A stretch of 61,032 nucleotides of DNA from positions 1 to 61,032 of the IMG/VR virus record IMGVR_UViG_3300042864_000169; one strand, written 5' to 3'. Under the pieces are notes generated by a model that did no database searches, was not told the origin of the DNA, and was given only the letters and a program-made list of their open reading frames with translations. Of the stretch, positions 302-60,184 are shown in pieces. The position numbers and the translations under genes were made by a program. Positions within the stretch are counted from its first letter, which is position 1; each line of letters begins with the position of its first letter. This DNA comes from a virus (taxonomy: Duplodnaviria; Caudoviricetes).

Positions 302-539
302 AATCGGTCTCCTTTTCCATGTAACGAACTAATGCTTTGGCATCCTCACTTTGCATCTTTTGAATGATCTCATACATCTGCGGGGCAATGGCTATCAGTC
401 GGGCATTCGCCCGTTGGGTAGCCATCGGGGTGCTTAAGCTTTTGCAGTCAGCAACCCGTGGATAGCCCCATTGATCCTGATAACCCCAAACAGTAACGTT
501 TGATGAGTGCCAAGGATGCGGTGTTATGTGTTTAAACAT
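282..539 (-). CDS. hypothetical phage protein (TPxPW...ANARLIAxAP family)
   Basis: HITPHPW and ANARLIAIAPQMYE motifs typical of a common small phage early protein. Confidence 0.8.
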   Translation of the reverse strand: MFKHITPHPWHSSNVTVWGYQDQWGYPRVADCKSLSTPMATQRANARLIAIAPQMYEIIQKMQSEDAKALVRYMEKETDYADQGN

Positions 540-631
540 TAAGGTCTCCAGTAAAACAAATCAAGCAGTAAAACGATAAAGCCAATGAGCAGTAACACCC
601 GCTCAAGTTTTTGCCATTGTGTGTGGTTCAT
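539..631 (-). CDS. 30-aa single-TM membrane protein (MNHTQWQKLERVLLLIGFIVLLLDLFYWRP)
   Basis: Not in ORF track; fills the gap exactly, GAGGTG RBS, hydrophobic helix. Confidence 0.65.
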   Translation of the reverse strand: MNHTQWQKLERVLLLIGFIVLLLDLFYWRP

Positions 632-879
632 TTGGTCACCTCTTCTTGTTTCTTAGCCCACCAATCAGGGGTGTATTCCGACACGCACTCAATGACAAAG
701 TCGCCATGATCATTCAGCACCCCATCGCCATCGGTGTAGTAAAAGATGCGCTCATCCACGGCATCCTCTATCCCATCCCACTCACCATCGCAAACAATCA
801 TGTCGCTGAATGGTTGCTTCTTGTCGTTCCATACAGTGGGTTTCCAGTACCCATCACAACTCCATAGTTTTGAGGTCAT
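628..879 (-). CDS. hypothetical acidic protein
   Basis: ORF track; AAGGAG RBS; overlapping start/stop. Confidence 0.7.
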   Translation of the reverse strand: MTSKLWSCDGYWKPTVWNDKKQPFSDMIVCDGEWDGIEDAVDERIFYYTDGDGVLNDHGDFVIECVSEYTPDWWAKKQEEVTK

Positions 880-1088
880 GCTTTCTCTCCTTTAATTAAT
901 CTGCCTACTGCATCCCTGATGCTCCGTTCTTCTTTGCTGTATTTGGTTGACTTAAGAACACCCTTTGCAAACTCTACGTCAAGTGAAAGATGCTCAATCC
1001 ATGACCCGTCCTCTATGTAGCGGTCAGCGGATTCGGTCAGGTTCTTCAGTGCTGATGTAAGGTAAACGATTCGTTCTTTATCATCCAT
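876..1088 (-). CDS. hypothetical protein
   Basis: ORF track; GGAGGTG RBS. Confidence 0.7.
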   Translation of the reverse strand: MDDKERIVYLTSALKNLTESADRYIEDGSWIEHLSLDVEFAKGVLKSTKYSKEERSIRDAVGRLIKGEKA

Positions 1089-1254
1089 TGGTCACCTCCT
1101 CGGTGCTTACCAAGTCCCAATCACCATGACCTGAGTCAATGAAATCTGACCCGTCCATTTCCTTAGCCTTCTCCCACGCATCCTCATGGTTTTCCGCTTC
1201 TATGAGTGCGTAGACGTGCGACACACTTCGTGCCCATACCTTGTAAGTTTTCAT
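1081..1254 (-). CDS. small acidic phage protein (MKTYKV...IEAENHEDAWEKA)
   Basis: Start reassigned to ATG 1254 behind AGGAG; VEAxxxEEA-type motif common in phage early genes. Confidence 0.7.
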   Translation of the reverse strand: MKTYKVWARSVSHVYALIEAENHEDAWEKAKEMDGSDFIDSGHGDWDLVSTEEVTNG

Positions 1255-1396
1255 TGGTTCTCTCCTGTATGTTTTTTCTAACGATGTAACGAGCGTCAGG
1301 TCTGCTTGCAAACCACTTGCTCAATCCTGAGTCATCATCTTGGAGGAGACCCGCAGGGTAGCCGGTCTTGCCTCCTTGTTTAAACGTCATGTCCAT
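1184..1396 (-). CDS. hypothetical protein
   Basis: ORF track; LLQDDDSGLSKWFASRPDAR core; 3' end overlaps the next gene. Confidence 0.55.
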   Translation of the reverse strand: MDMTFKQGGKTGYPAGLLQDDDSGLSKWFASRPDARYIVRKNIQERTNENLQGMGTKCVARLRTHRSGKP

Positions 1397-1632
1397 TTCT
1401 CCACGTCTGCGACAGATTTCTCGGTCACCACAATGTTGATACTGCTGTCGTTGAATATCTCCATAGCCTGATCAACTGCCTTGGATCGGCTAGTAGCCTC
1501 AACATCTATCTGCACAAAGCCCTCTACAGCCACTGTAATGGTGTATTTGGCAGTGGGTGTACCCTCTGCCTCCCTGCGCTCATTGGCAACCCACAACGCA
1601 GAAAAATGATTGTCTAATCCTTGCATGGTCAT
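1387..1632 (-). CDS. hypothetical protein (VEATSRSKA motif, similar fold to 1081-1254)
   Basis: ORF track; AGGAGG RBS. Confidence 0.7.
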   Translation of the reverse strand: MTMQGLDNHFSALWVANERREAEGTPTAKYTITVAVEGFVQIDVEATSRSKAVDQAMEIFNDSSINIVVTEKSVADVEKWT

Positions 1633-1637
1633 CCTCC

Positions 1638-1859
1638 TTAGTCTAGGTATGGTTCAAACTTGGGGGCAGTCCAACCGCCCTTGGCACGTAAGTCCTTGGT
1701 TGTGATGCCATATCTATGCACCACGTCACCCTCCCTGTTGAACACGTTGAGGTGCAGAACACCCTCCGCTATGAAAGCCTCAACATAGCCACTGTTCGCA
1801 CCAATGTTGATGACTGCACTCTTGACTTCGTTGTCAAGTAACTCGACTGATAATTTCAT
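1638..1859 (-). CDS. hypothetical protein
   Basis: ORF track; AAGGAG RBS. Confidence 0.7.
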   Translation of the reverse strand: MKLSVELLDNEVKSAVINIGANSGYVEAFIAEGVLHLNVFNREGDVVHRYGITTKDLRAKGGWTAPKFEPYLD

Positions 1860-2101
1860 TCTGTCTCTCCTTCGTTTAAACGTAATGTTTTAATAACTGC
1901 CATAACCTCATCAACAGACGGGGCGGTAAAGTTCTTGTCAAATAACTTCCATGCCTCGCAGACGGGGCAACCCGCCTCATAGTGATCACAGGGCGAACCC
2001 CATGTCGCTACTTGGTTGGTCACCACGTTGACCATCTTGTTGGTGCGTGGGCGGTTGAAATTGCCACGGATGGCACGGGGATCGTTGGGCATCAGTTCCA
2101 T
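1856..2101 (-). CDS. hypothetical protein with Cys cluster (CDHYEAGCPVC)
   Basis: ORF track; AGGAG RBS. Confidence 0.7.
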   Translation of the reverse strand: MELMPNDPRAIRGNFNRPRTNKMVNVVTNQVATWGSPCDHYEAGCPVCEAWKLFDKNFTAPSVDEVMAVIKTLRLNEGETE

Positions 2102-2124
2102 GATTACTCTCCTGTTTAAACGTG

Positions 2125-2301
2125 TTAATAAACGGCAAAGTCGCTTTGAAACTTCTCAATCAATGCGTCTGCTTTGACTCTCAGTTCCTCAATTTGTTTT
2201 GGTGGCATAGATATTTCCTTAGTCGCCAACCACATTAAGGTCTGCATGGTTGCAATAATTTCACTCTGCATTTCAGAACCGCTAATAAATTCAATTTTCA
2301 T
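2125..2301 (-). CDS. 58-aa hypothetical protein (MKIEFISGSEMQSEII...)
   Basis: Not in ORF track; AGGAG RBS; fills the gap. Confidence 0.6.
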   Translation of the reverse strand: MKIEFISGSEMQSEIIATMQTLMWLATKEISMPPKQIEELRVKADALIEKFQSDFAVY

Positions 2302-2660: not shown

Positions 2661-3332
2661 TCATACAGCAAGCTTCAGCTTGTCAAACGCTACAGTGCCC
2701 ATGTCCTCAAGCTTCTCGATGGTTACAGCGTTCTTGTAAATGTGGGTCACGTCCGAGCGGATGCCAACCCCGATAGTGGTGATGCCAAGGTTCTCACCCG
2801 ACAGTGCTTGTTCTCTGCAAGCATCAGCATTGCCGATGCCATCGGTAAGAAAGAAGCAAACCTTGCGCTCCTCCTGACGATTCAACAGCAACCCGTGGGC
2901 ATATGACAGGGCGGTGAAGTCCTGAGTACCGCCCCCTGACTGAAGCCTCTCAAGCATCGGTCTGACACGTTGATAGGGCACGTTGAAGTCTTTGAGCAAT
3001 GAGACCTCGCACCCGAATGTCACGACACTGGTTGCAACCCCTGCCTTGGACAGGGTGTCCAGTAGGGCATAGGTTGCTAGGATGGCATGGTACATCTTGG
3101 AGTCCAAGGGCTTGGCAGGGCGAAACATTGAGCCTGACACGTCAAGCACAATGGTCACCGCAGAGTCGATGCCGTCATGTTCTTTCCTACGTTTAAACAG
3201 GCGGTCATTGTGAGCCATAGTCGGGAGTGCCCGAACATTCAGCACCCCTGACTTGCGGTTGTTTTGGAATTCTTCAAAGCCCGAATTCTCAAACAGCTTT
3301 CTGACTGTATAGCGTAACTTGGCGGGAATCAT
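2661..3332 (-). CDS. vWA domain protein (CobT-like C-terminal half)
   Basis: MIDAS LDVSGSM, GGTQD and FFLTDG motifs; next to a MoxR/CobS ATPase. Confidence 0.9.
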   Translation of the reverse strand: MIPAKLRYTVRKLFENSGFEEFQNNRKSGVLNVRALPTMAHNDRLFKRRKEHDGIDSAVTIVLDVSGSMFRPAKPLDSKMYHAILATYALLDTLSKAGVATSVVTFGCEVSLLKDFNVPYQRVRPMLERLQSGGGTQDFTALSYAHGLLLNRQEERKVCFFLTDGIGNADACREQALSGENLGITTIGVGIRSDVTHIYKNAVTIEKLEDMGTVAFDKLKLAV

Positions 3333-3341: not shown

Positions 3342-4346
3342 TTAAAAGTCGATTGGGAAAGTACGGGGGTTGTCAGCCCTTGTGTGATACCCATTGCGCA
3401 TCACGTCATCGGTGCTGTAAGAGCCTCCCGATCCTGCACCCTCGGGAGGGTTGGCGGTAGGCTCAACCTCACGGGCTTTGACTGTATTGCCATCCTTTGT
3501 AGGAGGCTTCGCAGGGTTGGTTGGGGGGGTAGGTTGGTCACCCTCCTGATCACCGCCTGTAGGCTGTTCTGAGTCCCCTCCTGAGCCATTCTCATCATCA
3601 CCCTCACCGCCATCCTGATCACCGCCCTGATCACCCTCATCCTCACCCTCATCATCGGAGGGAGGGGTTGGGTTGGTTGGCGGTTGGATTGGCTCATCCT
3701 CGGGCTTGGTGTTCACATTGTTAAGCTGATCAAACACCCACTTGGCAACCTCCAAGGTGTCCCAAGAATTACCGCAAGTGTTTAAACGTTTGACAGCCTC
3801 GGCAAAGATTGGCTCAAGCCCAAGGGCGAGAGGCACTTTGATCTTGGCGTGTTTACGTCCGTAGACAGCGAGAACAAAGGGGTACTGGACAGGGTCTGAC
3901 CAGTCGATTGCCTCACCCCTGCGGTTCTTGTAAGCCAAGCCCTCGGCAACCATGCCGTTGATCAGGGCACTGAGCAACTCCTCGATGTTGCCTGTCAGCC
4001 CTGCCTTGATGCCCTTGCCCTCGATCCACGCATCCTCTAAGGCATTGTGCAACTGGGCAATGTACTGCCCGTGCGCATAGGCTGAGTGAACAGCATCAAA
4101 GTCGGTATACATCCAGTGCAACAACTCATGTACCGCCATGCCTACATAGCGCATCAGGTCACCCTGAGTCAGCACTGCATCATCTTTGACGTTGGCAAGT
4201 ATGACACTGCCACTCTTGTTGATACAGGCGGTTTGTGTACCCGCATCCCAACGAACCTCGACAGGACGCAAGCCCAAGTCAGAGCAGATTTTGTGAATGC
4301 CGATCACCACGGCACGTTTAAACTCATAGCCACGATAGGTTTTCAT
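3342..4346 (-). CDS. CobT-like N-terminal half: zincin-like domain plus acidic Gly/Asp linker
   Basis: AVHELLHWMYTD (HExxH), HNALEDAWIE, long D/E/G-rich tail. Confidence 0.85.
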   Translation of the reverse strand: MKTYRGYEFKRAVVIGIHKICSDLGLRPVEVRWDAGTQTACINKSGSVILANVKDDAVLTQGDLMRYVGMAVHELLHWMYTDFDAVHSAYAHGQYIAQLHNALEDAWIEGKGIKAGLTGNIEELLSALINGMVAEGLAYKNRRGEAIDWSDPVQYPFVLAVYGRKHAKIKVPLALGLEPIFAEAVKRLNTCGNSWDTLEVAKWVFDQLNNVNTKPEDEPIQPPTNPTPPSDDEGEDEGDQGGDQDGGEGDDENGSGGDSEQPTGGDQEGDQPTPPTNPAKPPTKDGNTVKAREVEPTANPPEGAGSGGSYSTDDVMRNGYHTRADNPRTFPIDF

Positions 4347-4353: not shown

Positions 4354-5778
4354 TCACAGATATTTTGCTAGAACACTAGCGTTGATGTAAGCCGACTTGA
4401 TTGCATCAAGTGCGACACGGCTCTCCTCGGGTTGACGGGAGGTAATGGTTGATTCCCATGCCTCATCAACTGAGAGAATTTCCAATGCCCGAATGAAAGC
4501 GAGGGCAGAGCGGATAGAGGGGGCATCGATCACGTCCCCTGTAATGACCTTGGCACGGCAAGCACTGATGGCATTGACTACGTGTTCAGCCAACATTTTG
4601 TGGCAACCAGTGTGCAAGGTCAGAGCAATAACCTCTTGCTCTTTGCTCAGGTACTTGAACTCAATGACACGGGCAAAGCGGTCAACCAGTGCAGAATTCA
4701 TTTGTTGAACCTTGGCATAGCGTCCTGATGTATCACCATTGGTCAGGGTGTTATCAGCCGAAAAGACCAAGACACCCTCTGCCCTGCGGTGAACAGAACC
4801 CCCGTAGTTGACTGCACTATTGGGTTCTAAGAACCCGTTAAGAACAGCCAACTCACCCGCATCTGCCATGCTGATTTCATCGAGCAAAACCACTGTAGAT
4901 GGGGAGGTGAAAGCCTCCAAGAAAGCACCTTTTTTGAACACTGTCGCACCATTCTCAAGACCGACAGCACCCGCATAATCATCGGCTGTCGTGTACTTGT
5001 GGAAGTTGATACGTGTAAACGAGCGTCCAGTACGGGCACTAAATTGTCTTGCAGTCTCACTTTTCCCAGTGCCTTTAGCCCCACCAAACCACAAATTTTC
5101 TGAAGTCTTTTGTGAGAGGAGCAAGTGCTTCAGAATGTCCTCTTGCCACACAAAGTTGGGATCAACATCGGGGCTGTCAGGGGCATCCCAAATGTCAACC
5201 ATGACAGGGTTGCCCTTTGGGTTGCGAACGTCAACACCGAATACATCGAGCGCAGATTTCCGATCAATGATCTTTGCCTTGGTAGCGTTAGCCACGACAG
5301 CCTCTGCCTTGGCATCTTTGACAGCTTGCGCAAAGGGTTTAAACGCTTTTGCAATGGCACTGGCAACCTCTGCGCTGATCTTGTCCTCATCGAGGTTTGA
5401 CTTAGATGCGACAGAGGCATTGTGGACTGCCACTGACAGATCATTGATCTGTTGCGCTACAGCGTTGATGCTCTGAGTAGCCACTGCCACTTTGTTGATG
5501 GCATCGAGGGCAACCGCCTCGGCACGTACAGCAACCGAGGCGGTAGCATCAAGCTTGGCACTGTCTACACTGCTCACATTGTCAGCGACAGGTGAGCAAT
5601 TTCTGATGTAGTCAAAGTCAGTTAAGCCCTGCTCGATCAGGTCACCTAACCAGTTTAAACGCACCATCTTGTCTTTGTCCTGACGGATATGGTCAGGGGC
5701 TTTGAGGGCTGAAACAGCCCCGTTGATAACGAACTTGTCGAGGGTTGACAAGGTTTTAATTGTGTTCATGGAAGCCAT
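4354..5778 (-). CDS. CobS/MoxR-type AAA+ ATPase with N-terminal coiled-coil extension
   Basis: Walker A GAKGTGKS, Walker B VLLDEI, sensor ADNT, NSALVDRF, SIR. Confidence 0.9.
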   Translation of the reverse strand: MASMNTIKTLSTLDKFVINGAVSALKAPDHIRQDKDKMVRLNWLGDLIEQGLTDFDYIRNCSPVADNVSSVDSAKLDATASVAVRAEAVALDAINKVAVATQSINAVAQQINDLSVAVHNASVASKSNLDEDKISAEVASAIAKAFKPFAQAVKDAKAEAVVANATKAKIIDRKSALDVFGVDVRNPKGNPVMVDIWDAPDSPDVDPNFVWQEDILKHLLLSQKTSENLWFGGAKGTGKSETARQFSARTGRSFTRINFHKYTTADDYAGAVGLENGATVFKKGAFLEAFTSPSTVVLLDEISMADAGELAVLNGFLEPNSAVNYGGSVHRRAEGVLVFSADNTLTNGDTSGRYAKVQQMNSALVDRFARVIEFKYLSKEQEVIALTLHTGCHKMLAEHVVNAISACRAKVITGDVIDAPSIRSALAFIRALEILSVDEAWESTITSRQPEESRVALDAIKSAYINASVLAKYL

Positions 5779-5802: not shown

Positions 5803-6414
5803 TCAAATCAAAGCGAGGGTATCGCCCTCATTGGGGCAGATCGGCAGGTTGAGGTTGCCGTTCTTGTATGCCCACTTGGAGGTGAGCCGAACCGCATATC
5901 CGCATGATGGGCACTGAGCAAGCAACATCCGAGTGCCTTGCTTTTTGCCAACCGAGGCTGACAACTCAGCGTGGACGTATGCACCGAGCGAGTCGATGAT
6001 CTGCTGATAGGCTTGAACGAATGCACCGCCATGAGTCACCGACTTGTAACGGGCTGACTGAGTGCCGTTGGGTAACAGCAACATGGCATCGGCTATCTTT
6101 TGATAAGGCTTGCCGTGATTGAGCGCACCCTTAGCGGTATGGCACAACATGGCAATGAGGGTCTCAAAGACCTTGACGGGATCGGCAAGCACAGGGCTGA
6201 TGAAAATCTCATAGTGAGCGTCAGCACTGTTCGTACTAGGGAAGCACTCGCCAACTGACTTGAAGTTGGTACGCTTGGCATTGGAGGGCAGAGCGCAAGA
6301 CACTCTGATTCTGTCGCTGATGGACACGCCATTGATAAGAAAGAACGGCTTCAACTCGGTGATAGCACCATTGAGCCAATCTTCACGGGTAGAGTAAATG
6401 ACAGGTAATGACAT
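5803..6414 (-). CDS. SprT-like protein with C-terminal Zn ribbon; catalytic HExxH degenerate
   Basis: TREDWL, VGECF, EIFISP, H(G)KPY, CPSCGYAVR..KW...PICP; LIAMLCH at the expected LxHELCH position. Confidence 0.7.
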   Translation of the reverse strand: MSLPVIYSTREDWLNGAITELKPFFLINGVSISDRIRVSCALPSNAKRTNFKSVGECFPSTNSADAHYEIFISPVLADPVKVFETLIAMLCHTAKGALNHGKPYQKIADAMLLLPNGTQSARYKSVTHGGAFVQAYQQIIDSLGAYVHAELSASVGKKQGTRMLLAQCPSCGYAVRLTSKWAYKNGNLNLPICPNEGDTLALI

Positions 6415-6517: not shown

Positions 6518-6536
6518 GTGGGTATCGCTATCATGT

Positions 6537-6836
6537 TTAAACAGTCGCTTGATATTGCGCTGTCAGGGCTTCCAACACCTTGATGCGTTCAGAAGCAAGG
6601 GCGAAAGCCTCACTCATCACCTCCGCAAGTTGGAGGGTTGTTGTCTCTGCAACCACGCCCCCTGCCCCGTAGTGGAGCGTGATTGTCGGGGGCTTGCGGT
6701 TGCCGTAATGCTCAAACTTAATGAAGCAAATCCCATCACTGCACCAGTGTGTCGGTGAGTGGTACTCATAACGAATCTGCCCGTAAACACCGCCTTTTTC
6801 AAGACGGGCATTGTCAATGATCTTTTCTGTGATCAT
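6537..6836 (-). CDS. hypothetical protein
   Basis: ORF track; start moved to ATG 6836 behind AGGGGA. Confidence 0.65.
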   Translation of the reverse strand: MITEKIIDNARLEKGGVYGQIRYEYHSPTHWCSDGICFIKFEHYGNRKPPTITLHYGAGGVVAETTTLQLAEVMSEAFALASERIKVLEALTAQYQATV

Positions 6837-6837
6837 G

Positions 6838-6993
6838 TTATTCCCCTGCAAAGTAGAAAATTAAAGAGGCAACCAACGACATGATGGCTACCCAAAACAA
6901 GAGCAGTGATTCACTGCCCAAGACCATGACACTCGCCAAAAACCCTGTCATGCAGACCAAGGTTTTGAGAATGTAGAACTGATAGATTTTCAT
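6838..6993 (-). CDS. 51-aa two-TM membrane protein
   Basis: Not in ORF track; AGGAGG RBS; MKIYQFYILKTLVCMTGFLASVMVLGSESLLLFWVAIMSLVASLIFYFAGE. Confidence 0.7.
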   Translation of the reverse strand: MKIYQFYILKTLVCMTGFLASVMVLGSESLLLFWVAIMSLVASLIFYFAGE

Positions 6994-7005
6994 AAGACCT
7001 CCTGT

Positions 7006-7587
7006 TTAAACCCAACCGAAACGCTTTGCGCAGACAGCACCCATGCCGAGTGCGACTGACTCAGGATCTGACAGATCCCTGTTACAGACTGAACAACGTC
7101 CGAATGTTTTGCCATAGGCAATGGCTGAACTACGGGGGTCAGCAAGCACCTCGCTGATCTGACTTGCACTCTCAGCGGAGGCATCACGGGAGGTAAACAA
7201 CTTACCGCCTGTCACCTTGCCGAGGTAGACACCCTCGGACTTGACGTAGATTGAACCCGCATTCTTGCCTGTCACTGGGGCAGGGCTGAATACGAAAGCA
7301 CCGAGCCGTAGCTTGGGGTAGGACAGACCCGAATCCTTAGCCTTGTCAAAGGCAACCTCGATAGGGGACACGTCAACCTGAGCGGAGGGGACAGGCTCAG
7401 GGCGAGGGGCAGAATCCTTAGCCACGCACCGCTGAATAGCGGACAGTTGGTTAGGGGTCAGATTGCCATATCTGTGAAGCGCAGACAGCACAGAGGAGGC
7501 AAAGGAGAAAGAGGGTGACTTGGCAACAAGCCACTCATACTCGGCAGGGTTAGCCTCGATGAACTGGGCGATACGTTGAACATTCAT
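7006..7587 (-). CDS. protein with C-terminal DUF6011-like Zn finger
   Basis: GRCSVCNRDLSDPESVALGMGAVCA; N-terminal GNLTPNQL motif. Confidence 0.8.
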   Translation of the reverse strand: MNVQRIAQFIEANPAEYEWLVAKSPSFSFASSVLSALHRYGNLTPNQLSAIQRCVAKDSAPRPEPVPSAQVDVSPIEVAFDKAKDSGLSYPKLRLGAFVFSPAPVTGKNAGSIYVKSEGVYLGKVTGGKLFTSRDASAESASQISEVLADPRSSAIAYGKTFGRCSVCNRDLSDPESVALGMGAVCAKRFGWV

Positions 7588-7603: not shown

Positions 7604-7659
7604 TGGGCAAAATTGCCACTTCAAAACCCTGACAAGCAGGGCTTCAAGGTGAAAATTTA
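7604..7659 (-). ncRNA. structured 5' leader element, copy B
   Basis: AAAUU-UUC-ACC-UUGAAGCCCUG/CAGGGUUUUGA-A-GUGGC-AAUUUU-GCC. Confidence 0.6.
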
Positions 7660-7788
7660 AGCAGTGGCAAACTTCCTGTTTAAACAGTCTTTGTAACTGC
7701 CAGTGAAAAAGATGCGGTAGCCGTTACGCTCCCGATCACCCTTGCAAACAATGATGTTGCCGAATCTGTCGATTTGTGCGGTGTACAT
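7657..7788 (-). CDS. 43-aa hypothetical protein (MYTAQIDRFGNIIVCKG...)
   Basis: Not in ORF track; AAGGAG RBS. Confidence 0.65.
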   Translation of the reverse strand: MYTAQIDRFGNIIVCKGDRERNGYRIFFTGSYKDCLNRKFATA

Positions 7789-8436: not shown

Positions 8437-8455
8437 GTTGTTGTCCTAGATAGCA

Positions 8456-8502
8456 GTGCGAAAATGCACCCCGTAGCCCTAGGGGCTACAGGCTGAACTC
8501 TA
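8456..8502 (-). ncRNA. structured 5' leader element, copy D
   Basis: AGAGU-UC-AGC-CUGUAGCCC/GGGCUACGG-G-GUGC-AUUUUC-GCAC. Confidence 0.65.
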
Positions 8503-8675
8503 GCTAGAGGGGCAGGGGGATTTCAAACGTTTTACGTACCTGATTAGTCCCTGCCTCAAGACTCTTGTTGGTATCCCCAACTCTGTCTCACTAGGACTTT
8601 GATCAGTAGCCTAGAACTTATCCCCTTTGTCGGTTGGCGGGGAAAACATCTAAAGAACAATCAACCGACAACTGA

Positions 8676-8703
8676 ACTTTAACAGAATGATAGTGCCTGT
8701 CAA
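8676..8703 (-). promoter_or_regulatory. main leftward early promoter TTGACA-N16-TAAAGT with extended TG
   Basis: Perfect -35 and TGtTAAAGT at the head of the early operon. Confidence 0.65.
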
Positions 8704-9168: not shown

Positions 9169-9241
9169 TACGAACAGTGTGTTTCCCTGCGTTGGTGCGT
9201 GGGAAATGTGTGGTACTTATATATAGATGGAGCGTTTAAAC

Positions 9242-10108: not shown

Positions 10109-10114
10109 ACAAAC

Positions 10115-23398: not shown

Positions 23399-23409
23399 GG
23401 AGTTTAAAC

Positions 23410-51856: not shown

Positions 51857-52013
51857 TCTGATCCTTGTAATGTTGTATGGGAAGTTTAGCTTTTTGTTTA
51901 ACCAACTTCCTTAGCCAATCAGCCCCACCAAGATCTAAAAACATCAGCCATTCAACGTCTGACATCCTTACTTGCCTGCCTTTTAATGGCATGGGAGGTT
52001 TAGGTCTAGGCAT
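51828..52013 (-). CDS. small ribbon-helix-helix-like DNA-binding protein
   Basis: MPRPKP...QVRMSDVEW...LGGADWLR. Confidence 0.65.
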   Translation of the reverse strand: MPRPKPPMPLKGRQVRMSDVEWLMFLDLGGADWLRKLVKQKAKLPIQHYKDQNERMQKGIL

Positions 52014-52191
52014 TCTTTGGCCTCCGTGTTGCTCTAAGCGTCCAGCACCCAGCGCAGTACCATCTGTTTAAACCCATTTGGATACCGCCTTCTGGTGGTT
52101 TCTGCTGCGTACATTTATCACACTGTTTAAACTGGTGTGTGCTGGGTGGCATCCCATTTAAATCTAACTGTTGTTTTACAAACCCATTCAC
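52006..52191 (-). CDS. small Zn-ribbon protein
   Basis: CDKC...KPPEGG...RWYCAGCW. Confidence 0.65.
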   Translation of the reverse strand: MNGFVKQQLDLNGMPPSTHQFKQCDKCTQQKPPEGGIQMGLNRWYCAGCWTLRATRRPKNA

Positions 52192-52388
52192 TTCTTCATG
52201 CTCCGTACATAAGCGGCAAAACTTGCCGAGGTGTCTCCACCGTTTTTCATTTGGTCAAACTCCTTAGCCACCTCTTCTAGGGTGTTGTTCCTGATCTGAT
52301 TGGTTACAGGATCAAGTTGCTTTAGGATCATCTGCCTCTTGCGCCACCCTAGTGCCTTCTCCCATATGTTTAAACTTGGTTCGCTCAT
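52188..52388 (-). CDS. hypothetical protein (RNNTLEEVAKEF...SFAAYVRSMK)
   Basis: Start moved to ATG 52388. Confidence 0.65.
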   Translation of the reverse strand: MSEPSLNIWEKALGWRKRQMILKQLDPVTNQIRNNTLEEVAKEFDQMKNGGDTSASFAAYVRSMKK

Positions 52389-52539
52389 TGTTTGCCTTTC
52401 TGTATTCCAATACTTCGTTGAGTAAACGTTCCATCTCATCAGCCGCCATCAAATGAAATGGGCTGATCGGTTTGTGGCTTGCCATTGAACGCATCATGCC
52501 GATGGTTTGTCTTGCCGTGCCTTCACTTAGCTTTCTCAT
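52312..52539 (-). CDS. hypothetical protein
   Basis: ORF track; AADEMERL motif. Confidence 0.55.
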   Translation of the reverse strand: MRKLSEGTARQTIGMMRSMASHKPISPFHLMAADEMERLLNEVLEYRKANNERTKFKHMGEGTRVAQEADDPKAT

Positions 52540-53168
52540 GCGTTCTTTTCCTTAATATCGTAGAACCAATCATCACCCGCTGACCACTTACGTGTGCCAT
52601 CCACAGTCCACAGTCTTTGTGCGGCTTGGAAATCAGGAAACTTGGTGTCGGCAGGTATTAGGCTTTGGTCGTACCACAAACATCTGTTGTTCGGTTGCGT
52701 GGCAAACTGGCCGTTGTCTAATGCAATAAAGTTAAAGCTCTTGTGCTCCTCGGCTTGCTCAGTAAACGTTGTGTCTAAGTCCATCCCGTCAGCGCAAAAG
52801 TCCACGGTAAACAGATAGCGCCCAAAGTGCCACTCACGGTCTTTACCAAGGAACTTAACACCAAGGTTCCGTAGGGCAAGCTTTTCAATAATCGTAAACC
52901 GATAGCCCATGCAGTCCCACAGTTGAAGAATATCAATGGGTAGGTTGCCAGCCTCTTTGTGCCACACATACGCATGAATTGGTAGCTTGTCATACAACGC
53001 CCCGTAGTGCGGTAACAGGCTCTCAATACGGAACACCTGACCACGCAATGCTTTGAGTGAGATCCAAACCGCAGGCTCTAGTTCACCGTGGCCTTGATGG
53101 TCGTTATAAAGAAACTCCCGCTTCACAAAACATTTGATGGGAGGCAGTGACGCAACAATATAACTCAT
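52536..53168 (-). CDS. conserved phage protein of unknown function
   Basis: VKREFLY, GALYDKLPIHA, LQLWDC, YLFTVD, EHKSFN, QPNNR. Confidence 0.8.
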   Translation of the reverse strand: MSYIVASLPPIKCFVKREFLYNDHQGHGELEPAVWISLKALRGQVFRIESLLPHYGALYDKLPIHAYVWHKEAGNLPIDILQLWDCMGYRFTIIEKLALRNLGVKFLGKDREWHFGRYLFTVDFCADGMDLDTTFTEQAEEHKSFNFIALDNGQFATQPNNRCLWYDQSLIPADTKFPDFQAAQRLWTVDGTRKWSAGDDWFYDIKEKNA

Positions 53169-53620
53169 ACTCTTGCCTCTTCCGCTCCTTGGGCGCGTTG
53201 CTTTAAACCTTCATCCAACTGAACAATTAAGTCTGCGATGTCTGAGTCAACTAGATGCAACTTCTTAGTCCAACGGGCGATAGTCAATTGAAGATCATGG
53301 ACAAACTCCTCTTTCATTGAAACGTTTGTCATTACATCGGCAACCATCCTATAACCACCGCCAGTTTCACGGTCAGATGGCAGACTAACAAACGCACGAA
53401 CATGCGTAGGTTCATCTGCTAATACAGTGATCCTACATCTTTGAATCAAGGTTCTAGCCTGTTCTCTGCGGTATTGAACAGCCGCCTCTGAGTCATCCCA
53501 CTCAAAATGACTGTGCAGAATACTGCCCTCGTCTTGAGCCTCTTTGATAACGTCATCAATCATCAGCACCCCGCCATTGCGACGTGCCATCTTCTCTAAC
53601 AGTTTTCTTTCTTCGTTCAT
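53165..53620 (-). CDS. accessory protein downstream of the pentamer array (LHSHFEWDD..AA..YR..QAR family)
   Basis: Start at ATG 53620 behind AAGGAG; same strand as the RAMP-like gene and array. Confidence 0.75.
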   Translation of the reverse strand: MNEERKLLEKMARRNGGVLMIDDVIKEAQDEGSILHSHFEWDDSEAAVQYRREQARTLIQRCRITVLADEPTHVRAFVSLPSDRETGGGYRMVADVMTNVSMKEEFVHDLQLTIARWTKKLHLVDSDIADLIVQLDEGLKQRAQGAEEARV

Positions 53621-53648
53621 AGTTTCTCCTTTGTGTTTAAACATAAAT

Positions 53649-54222: not shown

Positions 54223-54234
54223 TTGGTTTAAACG

Positions 54235-55132: not shown

Positions 55133-55286
55133 GTCTCCCTATTGGCTTGGCATTCAGCCAATGCTCACCCAATCGCAGAACTGCACGTACCCACTTGCGT
55201 TGGTTGTGTCGATTGATATGTTCGGGAACCATATCGTTGTTGTAAATCTTCCGAGCCTTACGTCTTAATTGTTCATTCGTCAACAT
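55107..55286 (-). CDS. 59-aa basic protein (NRHNQRKWVRAVLRLGEHWL)
   Basis: Not in ORF track; AAGGGA RBS; fills the gap. Confidence 0.6.
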   Translation of the reverse strand: MLTNEQLRRKARKIYNNDMVPEHINRHNQRKWVRAVLRLGEHWLNAKPIGRLDATQSNT

Positions 55287-55503
55287 TTTGTAAATCCCTT
55301 TTCTTCATATGATCCGGCATCTTTGAAGCAATCCAATAGCCAGCCGCGTTTAAACTAAAACCTTTTGCAATCATTTCTTCGGGGGTTCTGCATCTGCGGT
55401 CTACTCCATACTGACCTGTGCGGTGTTTCTCAAACGCACCAGTGCTGTTGAAGTATTCCTTGCATCCCTGACATTGATTGCGGTCACCCCTTAATACTTT
55501 CAC
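55273..55503 (-). CDS. FDXHR-like Zn-finger protein
   Basis: CQGCKEYFNSTGAFEKHRTG...RCRTPEEM. Confidence 0.75.
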   Translation of the reverse strand: MKVLRGDRNQCQGCKEYFNSTGAFEKHRTGQYGVDRRCRTPEEMIAKGFSLNAAGYWIASKMPDHMKKRDLQNVDE

Positions 55504-55801
55504 TTGTTACCTCCCTCATAATTAAATGAGCAATCTCCTCGTTAATCAACTCCCCAAACGACTTTCCTGACGGGAATCTCATCTGAGATGCCTGATTGGA
55601 ATTAATCACGTTTGTAGCCGCATTAAGCCCGTCATTGAACCCCTTGAGATAAGGGTTGTCCTGTGCCATGCGCACTTCCAATCCCTCACGCAGAATCCTA
55701 GCCATAGTCACTCTCTTTGACTTGGCAAACTTCTTTAGCTTGACGTAATCAGCATCATCCAAGTAAGTCATAAACGGTTTTAGTTTTTTAGAAGGGGTCA
55801 T
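55484..55801 (-). CDS. ribbon-helix-helix-like regulator
   Basis: FMTYLDDADYVKLKKFAKSKRVTMARILREG. Confidence 0.65.
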   Translation of the reverse strand: MTPSKKLKPFMTYLDDADYVKLKKFAKSKRVTMARILREGLEVRMAQDNPYLKGFNDGLNAATNVINSNQASQMRFPSGKSFGELINEEIAHLIMREVTSESIKG

Positions 55802-56180
55802 TGTTTTTCCTTACAGATTCAAATTCATGGAGTAACAAGTCAAACTTGTATATAGCGTCTGTGTTTCCATGAAGCAATGTACGTGATTCAATTCCACAGC
55901 GTTTACACAACATGTGCGCAGCGTCTGTTTCGTTATCACACAACAGGAACTCTTGGAAGTCAGGGTCTCGGCAAAGCATCCCTGCTTTAGCAACTCGGTT
56001 GTTGTACTGCGTTGGTGACTCATCATCTTGGATGCGAACCAATGCACAGGCGTATCTCGCCCCAACAAAGTCCCGCAGAATCTCTACGGGTACTTCATCA
56101 GGGTGCAGAACAAGCGTCAAGACAAAACCTGTGCGGTCTTGCTTTAACGCTATCTTACGGGCTTCAAACTGTAGCGCCAT
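55788..56180 (-). CDS. conserved phage protein
   Basis: AGMLCRDPDFQEFL...CGIESR. Confidence 0.7.
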   Translation of the reverse strand: MALQFEARKIALKQDRTGFVLTLVLHPDEVPVEILRDFVGARYACALVRIQDDESPTQYNNRVAKAGMLCRDPDFQEFLLCDNETDAAHMLCKRCGIESRTLLHGNTDAIYKFDLLLHEFESVRKNNDPF

Positions 56181-56496
56181 CAAGTTGTCCCTGTAGATAG
56201 GAGATCACAGCACGGTAGCCAACCACATCTTGCTCAAGTTGAGTCAATGCTTCACTGGCAGAAAGGTACAACTCTTTCCAGCCGTCAAGGTCTTCGTGTA
56301 AACGTTTAATCTCTTTACGCAAAGTGTCTTGACCTTCTGTAACAACTGGCTTCACCGCCTTTACCGTCTTTTTCTTGGCGTGATGCAAGACTTGGTAAAC
56401 ATAGGTTGTAGTTACACCACAAGCCTTGGCAATATCTTTTGCCTTGTGTGTGGGGTTGGCTTCTTTGCAAGCACGAATTTCTTTTGCTTTAGTCAT
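56164..56496 (-). CDS. HTH plus coiled-coil protein
   Basis: KAKDIAKACGVTTTYVYQV. Confidence 0.7.
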   Translation of the reverse strand: MTKAKEIRACKEANPTHKAKDIAKACGVTTTYVYQVLHHAKKKTVKAVKPVVTEGQDTLRKEIKRLHEDLDGWKELYLSASEALTQLEQDVVGYRAVISYLQGQLDGATV

Positions 56497-56505: not shown

Positions 56506-56805
56506 TCAAAAGGGAATGTCTTTATCGTCAGCAGGAAACTCCTGCGCTTGGTCTTCGTGGCGTGTACCGCCTTCTTGCTTTGGAACATAACGATCCACAG
56601 CAAATGACAGGAACGTTTTACCGTTTTTGGCAACCTTCTTCCAACCGGATATCTTGATGATGGTCAGACCATCCTCAGTTTTGATGTTGGTCATGTCTTT
56701 TAAGTTGACTGCAATAGACCCAAAATAATCAGGAGACTTGGGAGTCTTCTTGGTTTGGGTTGCGAACATAGAACCTGTGTCCGGCTTTGCTTGGTAATCA
56801 CTCAT
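56506..56805 (-). CDS. single-stranded DNA-binding protein
   Basis: PDYFGSI..ISGWKK..GKTFLS; acidic C terminus DDKDIPF. Confidence 0.75.
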   Translation of the reverse strand: MSDYQAKPDTGSMFATQTKKTPKSPDYFGSIAVNLKDMTNIKTEDGLTIIKISGWKKVAKNGKTFLSFAVDRYVPKQEGGTRHEDQAQEFPADDKDIPF

Positions 56806-57472
56806 TTGGTTTCTCCGTTTGGTTTAGTTTTGTCTTCAATTCCTTGAAGCATTTAAGAACCCCCTCGTAAAGAGGAGGGTGCGTTTCCTTCAGCGAGTCA
56901 AGCTGAAGTTCATTGCTCTTCCAGTAGCTGTTTAAACCTGCTACTGTGGTGCAGTGGGATGTCCACTCAATCATTCCATCGGCAAACAATTTACGGCTTG
57001 CATCTGAGTCGTCCCATTCCTTGGGCTGAACAAACTTGGTGGCTGTCCTGACAATAGGCTTTGGAGCCGTTGCCACGGGCGTAGGAGCCTCTTTTGACTC
57101 ATCCTCCGGAAGATCATCTCCCGAATAGATATATATGCCCAAACCGTGGAGCGCAAGGGCTTTGGTCATGCATCGCATGATGGCAGTGTTAACGGCAAAC
57201 GCATCGGGATTAAGGATGGGTTTGTTCTTGTAGTCCATCACGGGCAACATACAGGTACGGGGTTGACCGAACATGGTGACGGTGACCCACACCATGCCTG
57301 TGCCATTAACATCCATGTAGGGTTTACCCTCAAATGTCTGCACATCAAAGGTTGCGCTTTGGTCTGCCTTTAATGCCTCTCGCCATGCCCACGCCCATGA
57401 AAGGTACGTTAAGCCATTCTTCTTCTCTGTATGCTCGTTGACGTTAATTTTGAGCAGATCATGCGGGGACAT
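56798..57472 (-). CDS. Sak/Rad52-like single-strand annealing protein (DUF1071)
   Basis: LTYLSWAWAW, LPVMDYKNK, RCMTKALALHGLGIYIY.G.DLP; start 57472 behind AAGGAG. Confidence 0.85.
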   Translation of the reverse strand: MSPHDLLKINVNEHTEKKNGLTYLSWAWAWREALKADQSATFDVQTFEGKPYMDVNGTGMVWVTVTMFGQPRTCMLPVMDYKNKPILNPDAFAVNTAIMRCMTKALALHGLGIYIYSGDDLPEDESKEAPTPVATAPKPIVRTATKFVQPKEWDDSDASRKLFADGMIEWTSHCTTVAGLNSYWKSNELQLDSLKETHPPLYEGVLKCFKELKTKLNQTEKPNE

Positions 57473-58337
57473 TGAGTTCTCCTTGGTACTGTTTACACCA
57501 CTTGCTGACTCCACAGAAATCTCCTGTGCATCGCTTGTACTCACCTTTTCTTTCCTCGACATAGCCTTTTTCCTTTTCTGCCAACTCTGTGGCTTCCTCT
57601 ATGGTTTTAAAAACACGGATCGCAGACTTGCGTCCCTCTCTCTTTACTGCGTAGATGGTTTCACTCATCCATCTTTCTTCATCGGTACAGGGTTGTAGTT
57701 CCTCTCCGAATTCTTGGGCTTGCTTGGCAAAGCGGTGCATGTCCAAGCGTTGGCGTACATAGGTCTCGGTGGTGACCGAGTTCCACATTGGGATGTCAAT
57801 CATCACTGCCTCTGCCTCGGGATAGTTCTCCTGATTGGCATGGGGCGAGTAATCTTTAATGATTGCGCAGATCTTCAGACCGCAGACCTTTTGCTTCTTG
57901 ACTGTCTCAATCAACCATTTGTAGATGTTCAGTTGGGTAACCCATTCGTCCTTGTTACTTGCCAAGGCTTGCATGGCTGACCAAGCCTTAACAAACTTGT
58001 AATCGATGATTACAACCCCGTCCTTTGTGTGTTCCTGTAAATCAATAGCGCCGCTGATGGTGATCCCGTCAATAGAATGAAAGATGCGCTCCTCGTTGGT
58101 GTAGCCCTCAATGGCCTTGCCCTCAAGCTTTGCATGCATGAATGTGCCTAGCTGAGAAGCAATCAACTTGGTAACGTCAATCTCCATCTCGTCATCGTAC
58201 TGTTCTCTCATTCTGCGTATCTTTGGTGGCGACATTAACTCTGTTACGCTATACTGAGATGCGCCCTTAGTGTAGAAGTCTCTAGCAAGCAAAGCCACTA
58301 ACGGTGCGGGTAAGCCTTGTTTGTTGGTAATTTTCAT
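57459..58337 (-). CDS. PD-(D/E)XK Cas4-like exonuclease
   Basis: GTFMH, ISGAIDL, IIDYK, QLNIY, C-terminal RC..FC.V..WC. Confidence 0.85.
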   Translation of the reverse strand: MKITNKQGLPAPLVALLARDFYTKGASQYSVTELMSPPKIRRMREQYDDEMEIDVTKLIASQLGTFMHAKLEGKAIEGYTNEERIFHSIDGITISGAIDLQEHTKDGVVIIDYKFVKAWSAMQALASNKDEWVTQLNIYKWLIETVKKQKVCGLKICAIIKDYSPHANQENYPEAEAVMIDIPMWNSVTTETYVRQRLDMHRFAKQAQEFGEELQPCTDEERWMSETIYAVKREGRKSAIRVFKTIEEATELAEKEKGYVEERKGEYKRCTGDFCGVSKWCKQYQGELNVPA

Positions 58338-58795: not shown

Positions 58796-58842
58796 ATCTC
58801 ACAATGGAGAGAGGAGAGTACCGGCAACTGCAAGTTGCGGTG
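58759..58842 (-). ncRNA. candidate ~85-nt sRNA (hairpin, CU-rich seed, terminator)
   Basis: Upstream promoter; 12-bp terminator stem with G-U pairs on the minus strand plus U8. Confidence 0.55.
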
Positions 58843-58847
58843 CGTGA

Positions 58848-58876
58848 AGTTTAAACTAAAAATACAACAGGTGCAA
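58848..58876 (-). promoter_or_regulatory. promoter TTGCAC-N17-TAAACT
   Basis: 17-bp spacer; -10 overlaps GTTTAAAC. Confidence 0.55.
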
Positions 58877-59016
58877 ATAATACTGCTGTTGGCTCCCGGC
58901 GGCAGTGTTTAAACGCTTGCGGCGTTCCCGGGGTAACATTTTTTGTTTAAACAAACCAGCCAACCCGGCTGCGATTTTCATTTTGCATACAGATTGAAAA
59001 TATTTTTACAAAGTAC

Positions 59017-59047
59017 TTGACAATATCCCAATAAGTTGTGATACATT
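59017..59047 (+). promoter_or_regulatory. rightward promoter (TTGACA...TGaTACATT)
   Basis: Perfect -35 but 19-bp spacer; extended -10 present. Confidence 0.45.
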
Positions 59048-59049
59048 CA

Positions 59050-59202
59050 GGTTGTTGCCGTAGGAAGCAATAAAGATTAAGGCCGTTTGCACATGCGTTC
59101 CGCTTTATCTAAGAGCCGAGTGGTGCTTTTAGATAAGGTTCCTACCGGACGCAGTTGCAAGCGGCTTTTTTCGTTATACCCCCCCGCATTCCTACGACAA
59201 CC
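59050..59202 (+). ncRNA. attenuator-like structured leader with bulged long hairpin and U tract
   Basis: Hairpin 59079-59168 with bulge TTCCTAC; GTAGGAA at 59060; second TTCCTACGACAACC at 59189. Confidence 0.6.
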
Positions 59203-59454
59203 GTACTCCAGACGTTACTAAGGGGTAGATATCTGCCTGCGTGGAAGCAAAGGGTTACGTGGTATGCGCAAGCTAGGGGGCAGTTCCCGAATAATCCACG
59301 GTGCTGGTCGTATCTGCAAGCACAGGGGTTAGGGCAACCTAACATGCAGAAGCCCTAACGGGCGGTGAAACCATCCCTCTCTACTCCTTGGGGTAGGGGG
59401 GTCTATGGGTGAAAATTATTAACAGCCCCGCAAAGGGGCGATAAGGAGAGAGAG

Positions 59455-59922
59455 ATGGAAGCAAGAGAAAGGGATTTCCAAAGGTTCGTCAAGCACCTTG
59501 GAGAAAGCCATGAGGGGGTTATCTCAGCCTCTAATTGGTTGAACAGTTTGGGTTACTCGGTAACGATACCGCCCTCGACTGTATCGGACAGTTATGAGAA
59601 CCGCATGGATCACGTAGATAAAGGTGACCTCTACATCAACATGAGGGTTGAGGTCAAGAGACTTGGAATTAATTTCACAAGCAGGGCAGATTGGAAATTT
59701 GGGGATAAGTTTATTGTCTGCGCCAAGCATTCCTTTGACAACGCAAGTCCCAAGCCATACGCATACATTATCCAAAGCGCAGATTTAACACACCTCGCAG
59801 TGGTGCATTCACATACGTGCAAACAATGGTATTCAGAAAAGCGCAAGGACTCAAGATACGAGGATGTAACGCAAGATTTTTATCTTTGCCCGATTGACCT
59901 TGTCAGGTTTCATGCGGTTTAA
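59455..59922 (+). CDS. PD-(D/E)XK-like protein
   Basis: DKGDLYINMRVEVKR; AAGGAG RBS. Confidence 0.65.
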   Translation: MEARERDFQRFVKHLGESHEGVISASNWLNSLGYSVTIPPSTVSDSYENRMDHVDKGDLYINMRVEVKRLGINFTSRADWKFGDKFIVCAKHSFDNASPKPYAYIIQSADLTHLAVVHSHTCKQWYSEKRKDSRYEDVTQDFYLCPIDLVRFHAV

Positions 59923-59944
59923 TTAACATCCCAAGGAGCAAATA

Positions 59945-60184
59945 ATGACACGCAATTTCAAGCAAGAGTACAAGACCCAACAAGAACGAGGCGAACATGA
60001 GAACCGAATGGAACGCCAACGTGCCCGTAGAAAATTGGACGCTAAGGGAGTGACCCGACAAGGTAAAGACGTAGCCCACGTCAAGGCTTTGAGCAAGGGT
60101 GGATCAAACGCAGATGGCGTGAGACTGGAATCCCCCAGCAAGAACCGCTCGTTTAAACGCAAGTCAGATGGTTCAATGAAATGA
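59945..60184 (+). CDS. small HNH-like endonuclease
   Basis: RNFKQEY...GKDVAHVKALSKGGSN...SKNRS. Confidence 0.75.
   Translation: MTRNFKQEYKTQQERGEHENRMERQRARRKLDAKGVTRQGKDVAHVKALSKGGSNADGVRLESPSKNRSFKRKSDGSMK

Follow-up and report, generated by a model that had tools for sequence, protein, structure and literature searches.

Phages are known to avoid palindromes, and the lake-metagenome virus record IMGVR_UViG_3300042864_000169 does so too, yet one palindromic octamer, GTTTAAAC, occupies about 83% of the places in this genome where coding permits it, and hundreds of lake contigs are alike in this respect. The question raised by this locus is why a phage would fill its own DNA with a single word and what might read it. 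The window, by which is meant the whole stretch of DNA analysed, is one entire virus record of 61,032 bases with linear ends, near-complete at a CheckV completeness of 98%. What it reveals is a lineage-wide, selected and re-codable octamer that is tied to a mobile early gene module. The explanation tentatively preferred here, at slightly less than an even chance, is that GTTTAAAC is the recognition word of a double-stranded-DNA reader encoded in that module and used as a distributed operator. A search of openly accessible full text, with subscription journals outside its reach, returned no description of GTTTAAAC as an iterated phage word, only papers on cloning sites and cyanobacteria.

Excess of the octamer over chance and coding expectation

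The original prediction, made by eye, placed at least 52 copies of the word where about one would be expected, and a recount gives exactly 52, at the same positions. Dinucleotide shuffles (n = 100) contained 1.33 copies on average and five at most, and Markov models of orders 0–5 predicted 1.08–1.79 copies once the motif's own copies were removed from the background, which corresponds to an enrichment of about 40-fold. The runner-up among palindromic octamers has only five copies, and the variants GTGTAAAC and GTTTACAC contribute eight each, in keeping with the more than ten variant copies noted in the original prediction. The mean spacing of the copies is 1.2 kb. Per kb, there are 1.41 and 1.35 copies in the two early regions, 1.17 in a giant gene encoding 3129 amino acids, 0.78 across the head genes and 0 between 23,410 and 36,361.

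This excess is independent of codon and peptide bias. Among 90 called genes, on which the gene-based counts rest, the word is read in two frames, xGT-TTA-AAC (n = 25) and xxG-TTT-AAA-C (n = 14), as befits the earlier view that it is not a peptide motif. The other 13 copies are intergenic or at a gene edge, a class of 12–13 of the 52, since the copy at 56930 belonged to it until a single-strand annealing protein (SSAP) gene, added later, moved that copy into coding DNA. Synonymous-codon shuffling within the 90 genes (1000 shuffles) left 5.07 ± 1.79 copies, with a maximum of 12, against the 39 observed. Peptide contexts able to encode the word, [CSRG]-Leu-Asn or x-Phe-Lys-[LPHQR], do so in 40 of 48 cases, and the tripeptide [CSRG]-L-N occurs 34 times compared with 12–24 for its permuted orders; the protein sequence itself is thus bent toward the word as well. 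Codon usage, a recurrent peptide or a family of repeats has next to no chance of producing these numbers as an artefact. The raw-sequence high-order Markov expectation climbs to 22.65, as an artefact would have it, but this is a circular result that arises because the motif's own sub-words feed the models, and the expectation falls back to 1.79 when the copies leave the background. Copies in two frames and in noncoding DNA do not fit an artefact either, nor do flanks that show no conservation beyond a mild Y...R preference and complementarity at chance level in the window and its close relatives. The copy-removed Markov models, the codon shuffle and the flank checks refute this explanation; codon-aware and higher-order models are also those under which a spurious signal had been expected to vanish, and the excess persists under both.

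Gene boundaries are favored by the word. A boundary is no more than 30 nt away from 16 of the 52 copies, compared with a random mean of 6.3 (~2.5-fold), and a Shine-Dalgarno-like word follows 10 of the 52 at a distance of 0–4 nt, including the three (2114, 2314, and 7004) predicted to stand directly before ribosome binding sites. The TAA embedded in GTTTAAAC is able to terminate the upstream gene. A predicted overlap with promoters at 10100, 18170, and 58849, and of a variant at 6490, found no support: sigma-70 consensus scans list no promoter-like site at these positions, and such sites are no commoner in the window than in shuffles. The copies are listed below, with no strand of their own; the sign in brackets is the strand of the gene, and fractions give the aligned relatives that keep the site.

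530–537: start of gene 282–539 (−), ATG-TTT-AAA-C; 6/6
1378–1385: intergenic; AAGGAGG next on the minus strand
1874–1881: gene 1856–2101 (−), xGT-TTA-AAC, followed by GAAGGAGA; 6/6
2114–2121: intergenic; AGGAGAG immediately after on the minus strand
2314–2321: edge of gene 2316–2573 (−); AGGAGAG immediately after
3191–3198: gene 2661–3332 (−), xxG-TTT-AAA-C
3780–3787: gene 3342–4346 (−), xGT-TTA-AAC
4316–4323: gene 3342–4346 (−), xxG-TTT-AAA-C; lineage-specific gain, 1/10
5337–5344: CobS-like gene 4354–5778 (−), xxG-TTT-AAA-C; 1/5
5653–5660: CobS-like gene 4354–5778 (−), xGT-TTA-AAC
6535–6542: edge of gene 6537–6851 (−), 121 nt upstream of the SprT-like gene start; variant GTGTAAAC nearby at 6490
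7004–7011: edge of gene 7006–7587 (−); AGGAGG immediately after
7678–7685: open reading frame (ORF) 7657–7788 (−), xGT-TTA-AAC; 4/6
9234–9241: 7 nt into the small-terminase gene 9227–9910 (+); 14/16
9870–9877: near the 3' end of the small-terminase gene, with GTGTAAAC at 9905; 20/27
10100–10107: ORF 9913–10122 (+); 40/40, 99th percentile of 8-mer conservation in the region
12114–12121: portal gene; polymorphic, 44/79
13555–13562: portal gene, GAG-TTT-AAA-CTG; 80/83; ATTTAAAC in genome G419
14585–14592: intergenic, past the portal gene; polymorphic, 28/80
15385–15392: gene 15167–16120 (+), xxG-TTT-AAA-C; 58/69, 96th percentile
18170–18177: intergenic, past the capsid gene and a hairpin at 18139–18154; 18/19; ATTTAAAC in G419
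22585–22592: gene 22089–23015 (+); 3/10
23077–23084: gene 23015–23398 (+); 2/8
23402–23409: between AAGGA and the ATG of gene 23410–23598 (+); final copy before the motif-free module
23410–36361: motif-free 13-kb stretch, tail spike/fiber genes and a homing-endonuclease gene; 0 copies
36362–36369, 36503–36510, and 37070–37077: three copies in gene 35644–37230 (+)
41921–41928: gene 40162–41991 (+)
43330–50700: eleven copies in the 3129-aa gene 41994–51383 (+), 1.17 per kb, at 43330, 43570, 43621, 43933, 45469, 46639, 48239, 48811, 48932, 49825, and 50693; eight are xGT-TTA-AAC and three xxG-TTT-AAA-C
51457–51464: gene 51370–51657 (−)
51745–51752: gene 51644–51856 (−); 3/3
52066–52132: two copies, at 52066 and 52125, in gene 52006–52191 (−)
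52368–52375: gene 52188–52439 (−)
53635–53642: start of gene 53165–53644 (−), ATG-TTT-AAA-C
54226–54233: intergenic
55348–55355: gene 55273–55503 (−); 0/3, with GTTTACAC in two
56930–56937: Sak-like SSAP gene 56798–57562 (−); 3/3
58849–58952: three copies, at 58849, 58907, and 58945, intergenic between the RusA-like gene and the replication genes, in an inverted arrangement with 15-nt arms that are 93% complementary
60151–60158: 79-aa ORF 59945–60184 (+), just ahead of the primase gene; 3/3

The motif-free stretch offers only two peptide opportunities for the word, both unrealized. Its tail spike/fiber genes have the weakest homology of the genome among relatives, with homologs weak or absent in two of them (G001 and G003), and the module looks like recently acquired DNA. 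The word had also been proposed as a recombination hotspot, a role that wins no support here: the tail-fiber module, the most mosaic part of the genome, is the one that holds no copy.

Conservation, re-coding and linkage to early genes

The word is shared by a lineage and its sites are conserved singly. All 80 loci fetched as portal relatives (81–99% identity, 646,883 bases) carry GTTTAAAC, for a total of 443 copies, and three long relatives have 54, 39, and 44 copies; the cultured phages DSL-LC04 and 023Pt_psg01 have none and three. Conservation of the sites, which the original prediction proposed to check, is seen one site at a time: those at 10100, 13555, and 15385 were kept in 40/40, 80/83, and 58/69 relatives, where the mean 8-mer identity across the 83 aligned relatives is 0.36, a pattern that suggests purifying selection on single sites. 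Whole-genome comparison found 25/34, 12/22, and 17/25 of the aligned sites kept. Other sites are polymorphic, and relatives also show gains elsewhere.

The word's specificity switches by lineage. In G419, a syntenic genome of 55.5 kb whose large terminase (TerL) is 78% identical, there are one GTTTAAAC, 20 ATTTAAAC, and 12 GTTTAAAT. Its x-F-K-[LPHQR] contexts are written A-TTT-AAA-C in 11 of 17 cases and G-TTT-AAA-C in none, and its [CSRG]-L-N contexts end in AAT five times and in AAC once. The window sites at 13555 and 18170 read ATTTAAAC at the orthologous positions of G419, a natural switch that amounts to a ready-made specificity experiment. A sister group at 91% portal identity mixes GTTTAAAC and ATTTAAAC, and GTGTAAAC is favored by G421, L380, and L396, a variant in which the window is enriched too (8 + 8 copies). 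Of the roles first listed for the word (binding, modification, decoy or recombination), synonymous saturation, single sites kept in up to 80 of 83 relatives, and word changes between lineages support a sequence-specific recognition site selected at the DNA level.

The asymmetric word of G419 stands 13 times in the sense and 14 times in the antisense orientation, on which ground an RNA-level signal was rejected. Its orientation is instead polar by region. In the head arm, 6/8 ATTTAAAC-sense opportunities are used and 0/7 GTTTAAAT-sense ones (p 0.007), the replication-gene arm is reversed (0/2 versus 4/4), and elsewhere both orientations are in use. Head-only loci of the ATTTAAAC lineage have a 24:1 orientation ratio, these loci being close relatives and not independent lineages. 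The switch in orientation lies near the CobS/SprT/terminase region, the equivalent part of which carries DnaA boxes in the window. Polarity is absent from 1–30 kb of G419 and from the GTGTAAAC lineage represented by G421.

The word tracks the early module and not the structural genes. A scan of virus contigs for three clustered GTTTAAAC copies yielded 94 stretches, about two dozen of which have dispersed, dense copies at GC contents of 0.33–0.55 and GTTTAAAC as the top or a near-top octamer. ORF clustering on 19 word-dense contigs chosen by the word alone recovered a SprT-like family in 14, a primase in 10, and TerL in 6. When virus contigs were searched with the SprT-like family, 80 loci were obtained, with 888 copies in 939,635 bases; in 76 of them the density is 0.26 copies per kb or higher, and three of the remaining four carry one-letter variants. 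The two genes most often shared by word-dense contigs lie in the window as follows.

5803–6414 (−): SprT-like zincin gene, 203 aa, with a C-terminal Cys4 ribbon; marker of the word-linked early module
60181–61032 (+): primase/helicase gene, truncated at the record end; second most common gene of the word-dense contigs (10/19)

Contigs of low GC content (0.34–0.38) possess another terminase family (phrog_2 versus phrog_38), yet carry GTTTAAAC in their early region, and they have in common with the window's group the SprT-like protein, the helicase/primase and a Cas4-like exonuclease. In these low-GC relatives the copies occur only in the early region, at one per 250–300 nt and at gene junctions, with nearly none across 8–30 kb of structural genes. 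Arrays of 3–6 copies, 14–27 nt apart, adjoin the SprT-like gene in the divergent control region of G006–G012. Phages that share the head module (TerL 56–67%, capsid ~84%) and have an unrelated early region contain 0–2 copies, and at portal site 13555 those with other early modules encode the same Phe-Lys as TTC-AAA or TTT-AAG, with the word in 0/12 versus 80/83. In a second portal set, all six loci with a SprT-like gene are dense in the word, with not a sparse one among them. These data disentangle what is usually confounded, namely host, structural genes and early genes, and tie the word to the early genes. They narrow its source down to the early module of the phage, as opposed to the host, and do not separate binding from modification.

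Private palindromes, mostly intergenic, are present in the head-sharing L471, L432, L473, and L474 and are confined to their early regions. They comprise TAACAATGTTA (14 copies in 7.5 kb), CTAACAAATGTTAG (ten copies, all in one orientation), CTCAAGTC-N-GACTTGAG (five copies), and ATACTGTC-N-GACAGTAT (seven copies). These words match the pattern of lineage-specific regulator sites, and it seems that early modules in this group of phages each bring a word of their own.

A proposed phage-encoded reader and its rivals

If the word is a distributed operator, its reader would be a sequence-specific double-stranded-DNA protein from the early (replication and regulation) module, for which the SprT-like zincin, the primase/helicase and the Cas4-like exonuclease serve as markers. 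Each additional site would confer a small benefit, and selection would come to fill nearly every coding-permitted position through synonymous codon choice, through conservative amino-acid replacements (Asp by Asn, for example), and, where genes meet, through the word's TAA acting as a stop codon just ahead of the next ribosome binding site, while the recently arrived tail-fiber module would still be blank. The most likely use would be that of one phage protein acting on many sites, with denser arrays at the control or origin region, to control or mark the whole genome. The analogy would be with the immunity repressor of cluster A mycobacteriophages, which acts through stoperators; that repressor is reported also to terminate elongation at numerous genome sites (PMC9283540).

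The SprT-like protein takes its name from cultured actinophage homologs annotated as SprT-like protease. Its family consensus, HExxH, is kept by 10 of the 12 members in the alignment, and it reads AMLCH in the window copy, with the His and Glu lost, and SQLAH in L152, which points to a non-proteolytic role in some lineages. No Pfam hit was obtained for the protein, and a PDB profile hit to Spartan has an E value of 0.3. The model is confident (predicted local distance difference test score, 88) and has minimal zincins as its best fold matches, weak at E 0.06–0.2; CapP stands at E 0.17 and an MCM-type zinc ribbon at E 0.26. It is treated here as a marker of the module and not as the reader. Other candidate readers are the 79-aa ORF before the primase gene, which is 87–91% identical in same-word genomes and 43% in G419 and looks HNH-like by eye, a 131-aa ORF at 55788–56183, and proteins with weak ribbon-helix-helix (RHH; 55484–55801) and helix-turn-helix (HTH; 56164–56496) matches. 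The small shared ORFs of word-dense contigs gave no informative Pfam hit.

Several observations weigh against a phage-encoded operator protein. No reader was pinned down among the window proteins scanned against Pfam and PHROGs, the set to which the searches below also refer. The SprT-like protein is only 24–55% identical among phages with the same word; as a specificity determinant it was rejected, as it shows no variant-specific change at invariant residues and does not covary with the word, and its homolog in Pseudanabaena phage Pan1 occurs in an examined stretch of 35.5 kb that has no iterated word. The divergent region of the window (8437–9226) is without any GTTTAAAC copy. The polarity of the ATTTAAAC lineage is regional and not set by gene direction, which a simple operator model does not predict. 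It is also possible that a host factor tracks the early module. Lastly, 39–40 of the 52 copies are inside genes, whereas stoperators are mostly intergenic and oriented, and there is no convincing HTH repressor, integrase or partition gene in the window, only RHH and HTH matches below the Pfam cut-offs; a stoperator-like role in lysogeny is therefore without support.

Stoperators and HIP1 are nevertheless the nearest analogues, although the word departs from both in defining traits. Like the stoperators of cluster A mycobacteriophages (L5 gp71-type), it occurs as many short copies genome-wide, often at gene ends, with 52 copies over 60 kb in the window if the 13-kb tail module is excepted, and it differs slightly among related phages. 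Stoperators are 13-bp asymmetric sites, mostly in one orientation relative to transcription, whereas the window has an 8-bp palindrome and the asymmetric form in G419 is split 13 versus 14. Stoperators are bound by the known repressor of temperate phages. Among the window proteins scanned there was no repressor or lysogeny gene, nor did a repressor emerge that would pair with the variation among GTTTAAAC, ATTTAAAC, and GTGTAAAC. Three-quarters of the window copies are intragenic, at about twice the density of stoperators. With HIP1 (GCGATCGC) of cyanobacteria, which embeds a methylated CGATCG core (PMC6604393), the word shares its form as a palindromic octamer, its huge over-representation in coding and noncoding DNA, and an unsettled function. 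HIP1 is a trait of cellular chromosomes, whereas the window word is a trait of a phage early module and is absent from phages that share the head genes. It is not dense in any cellular genome examined and has no cognate methylase among the window proteins, and both GCGATCGC and CGATCG are absent from the window (CGATCG, 0 versus 4.5 expected). DNA uptake sequences and uptake signal sequences (DUS/USS) are non-palindromic 9–12-mers in the chromosomes of competent hosts, unlike this palindromic 8-mer with no conserved flanks and no enriched cellular genome seen.

A dense cellular genome was sought for the word, and none was seen in what was searched. The cellular scan for three clustered copies gave at least 120 stretches of mixed taxa; those listed show no dispersed density like that of the phage and, by tblastn, no SprT-family homolog, and there is one weak 50-aa match between another small window protein and L254. 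Among five whole genomes tested, an excess was found in only one metagenome-assembled genome, G015 (titled Aquimarina sp.; L250), with 438 copies versus 49 of a control word in 2.1 Mb. Many of its GTTTAAAC pairs are separated by ~134–139 nt, much as the two ends of a short repeat element would be. One proteobacterial order, that of a Zoogloea MAG (metagenome-assembled genome), was covered with 401 genomes, an aggregate that includes four unpublished ones; the maximum was 109 copies in 3.5 Mb, and most genomes fell below the control word. The strong AGGAG ribosome sites and consensus DnaA boxes of the window would fit a proteobacterial or similar host.

These results bear on a host-imposed signature, which is distinctly unlikely. 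It would be HIP1-like, or a Chi-like self-marker of a host recombination nuclease, with a methylase plus mismatch repair, or RecBCD/AddAB, favoring the word and with any DNA in that host accumulating it. The statistics are those of HIP1, a palindromic octamer in all frames near saturation; recently acquired DNA lacks the word, as amelioration predicts; the scanned window proteins yielded neither a phage methylase nor a reader; and the early module, which has to work with host replication proteins, may itself correlate with the host. Yet word-dense phages range in GC content from 0.34 to 0.56, low-GC relatives are dense in the early region and nearly empty in the structural genes of the same genome, and phages with the same head module from similar samples lack the word. 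On the cellular side, the listed stretches are without phage-like density or SprT-family homologs, the sole excess among five genomes is repeat-like, and 401 genomes of one order do not exceed the peak given above. Chi and KOPS (FtsK orienting polar sequences) are octamers under genome-wide selection for their reading by a translocating enzyme; they are asymmetric, show strand skew over entire replichores, and abound in the chromosome of the host. The word resembles them as a genome-wide octamer and in the regional polarity of its ATTTAAAC lineage, and differs in being palindromic, in the lack of an enriched host among those seen, and in a polarity that is regional in G419 and missing from G421. 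A DNA-modification site, by which dense marks set by a methyltransferase or other modifying enzyme would protect or label phage DNA, is improbable. Recognition of an 8-bp palindrome is typical of type II enzymes, in which one-letter shifts of specificity between lineages are common, GTTTAAAC is the PmeI/MssI site, and the avoidance of other palindromes (20/64 hexamers absent) indicates that restriction pressure is real. Restriction targets are normally depleted by selection and usually avoided by phages, however, not multiplied ~40-fold; the ATTTAAAC variant is asymmetric; and the window proteins scanned gave no methyltransferase, restriction or modification gene. Some 1.5 kb of phage DNA lies outside the window, yet relatives show no large extra gene there.

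A replication-linked word is another, unlikely, alternative, in which the primase/helicase or a partner, for instance the 79-aa protein encoded immediately ahead of it, would read the word to load or prime. With a site every 1–2 kb on each strand, lagging-strand synthesis would become faster or more secure, and a palindrome would suit both fork directions. Consistent with this, the primase/helicase is the second most shared gene of word-dense contigs and a helicase/primase is present in the low-GC group too, the mean spacing is of the right order at 1.2 kb, three copies lie just upstream of the replication genes, and the asymmetric word is oriented by region and not by gene sense (6/8 versus 0/7, reversed to 0/2 versus 4/4, and 24:1). 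The window yielded no DNA polymerase gene and has a DnaA-box array at 9047–9168; the phage therefore seems to depend on loading host machinery. Known primases, however, recognize 3–5 nt and not 8 bp, the 13-kb copy-free stretch must still be replicated, and low-GC relatives confine the word to the early region. Polarity is missing from 1–30 kb of G419 and from G421, and the 24:1 ratio comes from close relatives. A further possibility, doubtful at present, is a phage-borne addressing system in which the reader of the mobile early module would drive whatever genomes it joins to fill with the word. The head genes would have gained the word after the modules met and the tail module would not yet have done so, and the word would be re-codable, as in the switch from G to A across ~30 sites. 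If the asymmetric form is read directionally, the reader may be a machine that translocates or is coupled to replication and that distinguishes phage from host DNA, a phage analogue of Chi and not a repressor.

For practical purposes, a DNA word shapes the codons that these phages use, an effect that matters for gene prediction, for k-mer-based host prediction and for tests of selection. Should an early-module reader be found, it would constitute a compact protein–DNA pair with genome-wide action and a new means for a phage to label or govern its own genome, and it might offer a clue to the origin of iterated palindromes such as HIP1.

Genome context and minor features

Near-identical DNA was present in contigs from 21 runs labelled freshwater or lake water (18 coded studies). 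The window encodes a tailed-phage gene set of small and large terminase, portal, capsid and tail spike, together with CobS/CobT-like proteins, a Sak-like annealing protein, an exonuclease, RusA, the 3129-aa virion-type protein and the primase/helicase. The closest cultured relatives by TerL, at 51–58% identity, are Phage DSL-LC04, phage 023Pt_psg01 and Pelagibacter phages HTVC027P and HTVC023P, and megablast with the giant gene as query returned no match among cultured phages. Relatives (G001 and L152) extend ~1.2–1.5 kb beyond the record end, a segment that holds the remainder of the primase gene and a small ORF and in which no large extra gene is seen. Scans of the window for tRNA and Rfam families gave no hits. 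Two further genes are of note.

30042–30767 (+): homing-endonuclease-like gene (phrog_314, E 2e-27), within the word-free tail module
41994–51383 (+): 3129-aa ORF; matches to known families, phrog_9854 and phrog_18222, both of unknown function, are confined to the last 700 residues, and relatives are 54–58% identical across the aligned parts

Avoidance of other palindromes is pronounced. In the window, 20/64 hexamer palindromes are absent, including GGCGCC (0 versus 16.1 expected), CTGCAG (0 versus 18.8), CAGCTG, CCATGG, GGTACC, and GCCGGC, as are 183/256 octamer palindromes, and the 4-bp palindromes GGCC (80 versus 220 expected), CGCG (48 versus 141), and TCGA (44 versus 148) are depleted. 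The strong avoidance of many 4- and 6-bp palindromes therefore implies heavy host restriction pressure on the phage.

A hairpin was considered as the form of the word and rejected for the window, where flanks are complementary only at the chance level; palindromes of 20–28 bp with covarying arms are found at a few low-GC copies. At gene junctions in L320 (G011; 8718, 9242, and 10048) and L317 (G007; 17781), GTTTAAAC is the center of perfect 26–28-bp palindromes, whose arms differ by site and by phage with complementarity kept. Elsewhere in the window, the GC-rich noncoding stretch at 59040–59440 (+), upstream of the replication genes, has a folding energy of −156.2 kcal/mol versus −131.4 in shuffles (z −4.9) and no Rfam match; it may form a structured RNA or belong to an origin. 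The array at 9047–9168 consists of DnaA-box-like 9-mers, TGTGGATAA with TGTATAA and TGTGCATAA variants and three copies of CTGTGGATAACTT, within a 790-nt divergent region upstream of the small-terminase gene, and is likely an origin of replication that uses host DnaA. Words of the TGTGGATAA type are also among the top octamers in several relatives (L334, L382, and L441).

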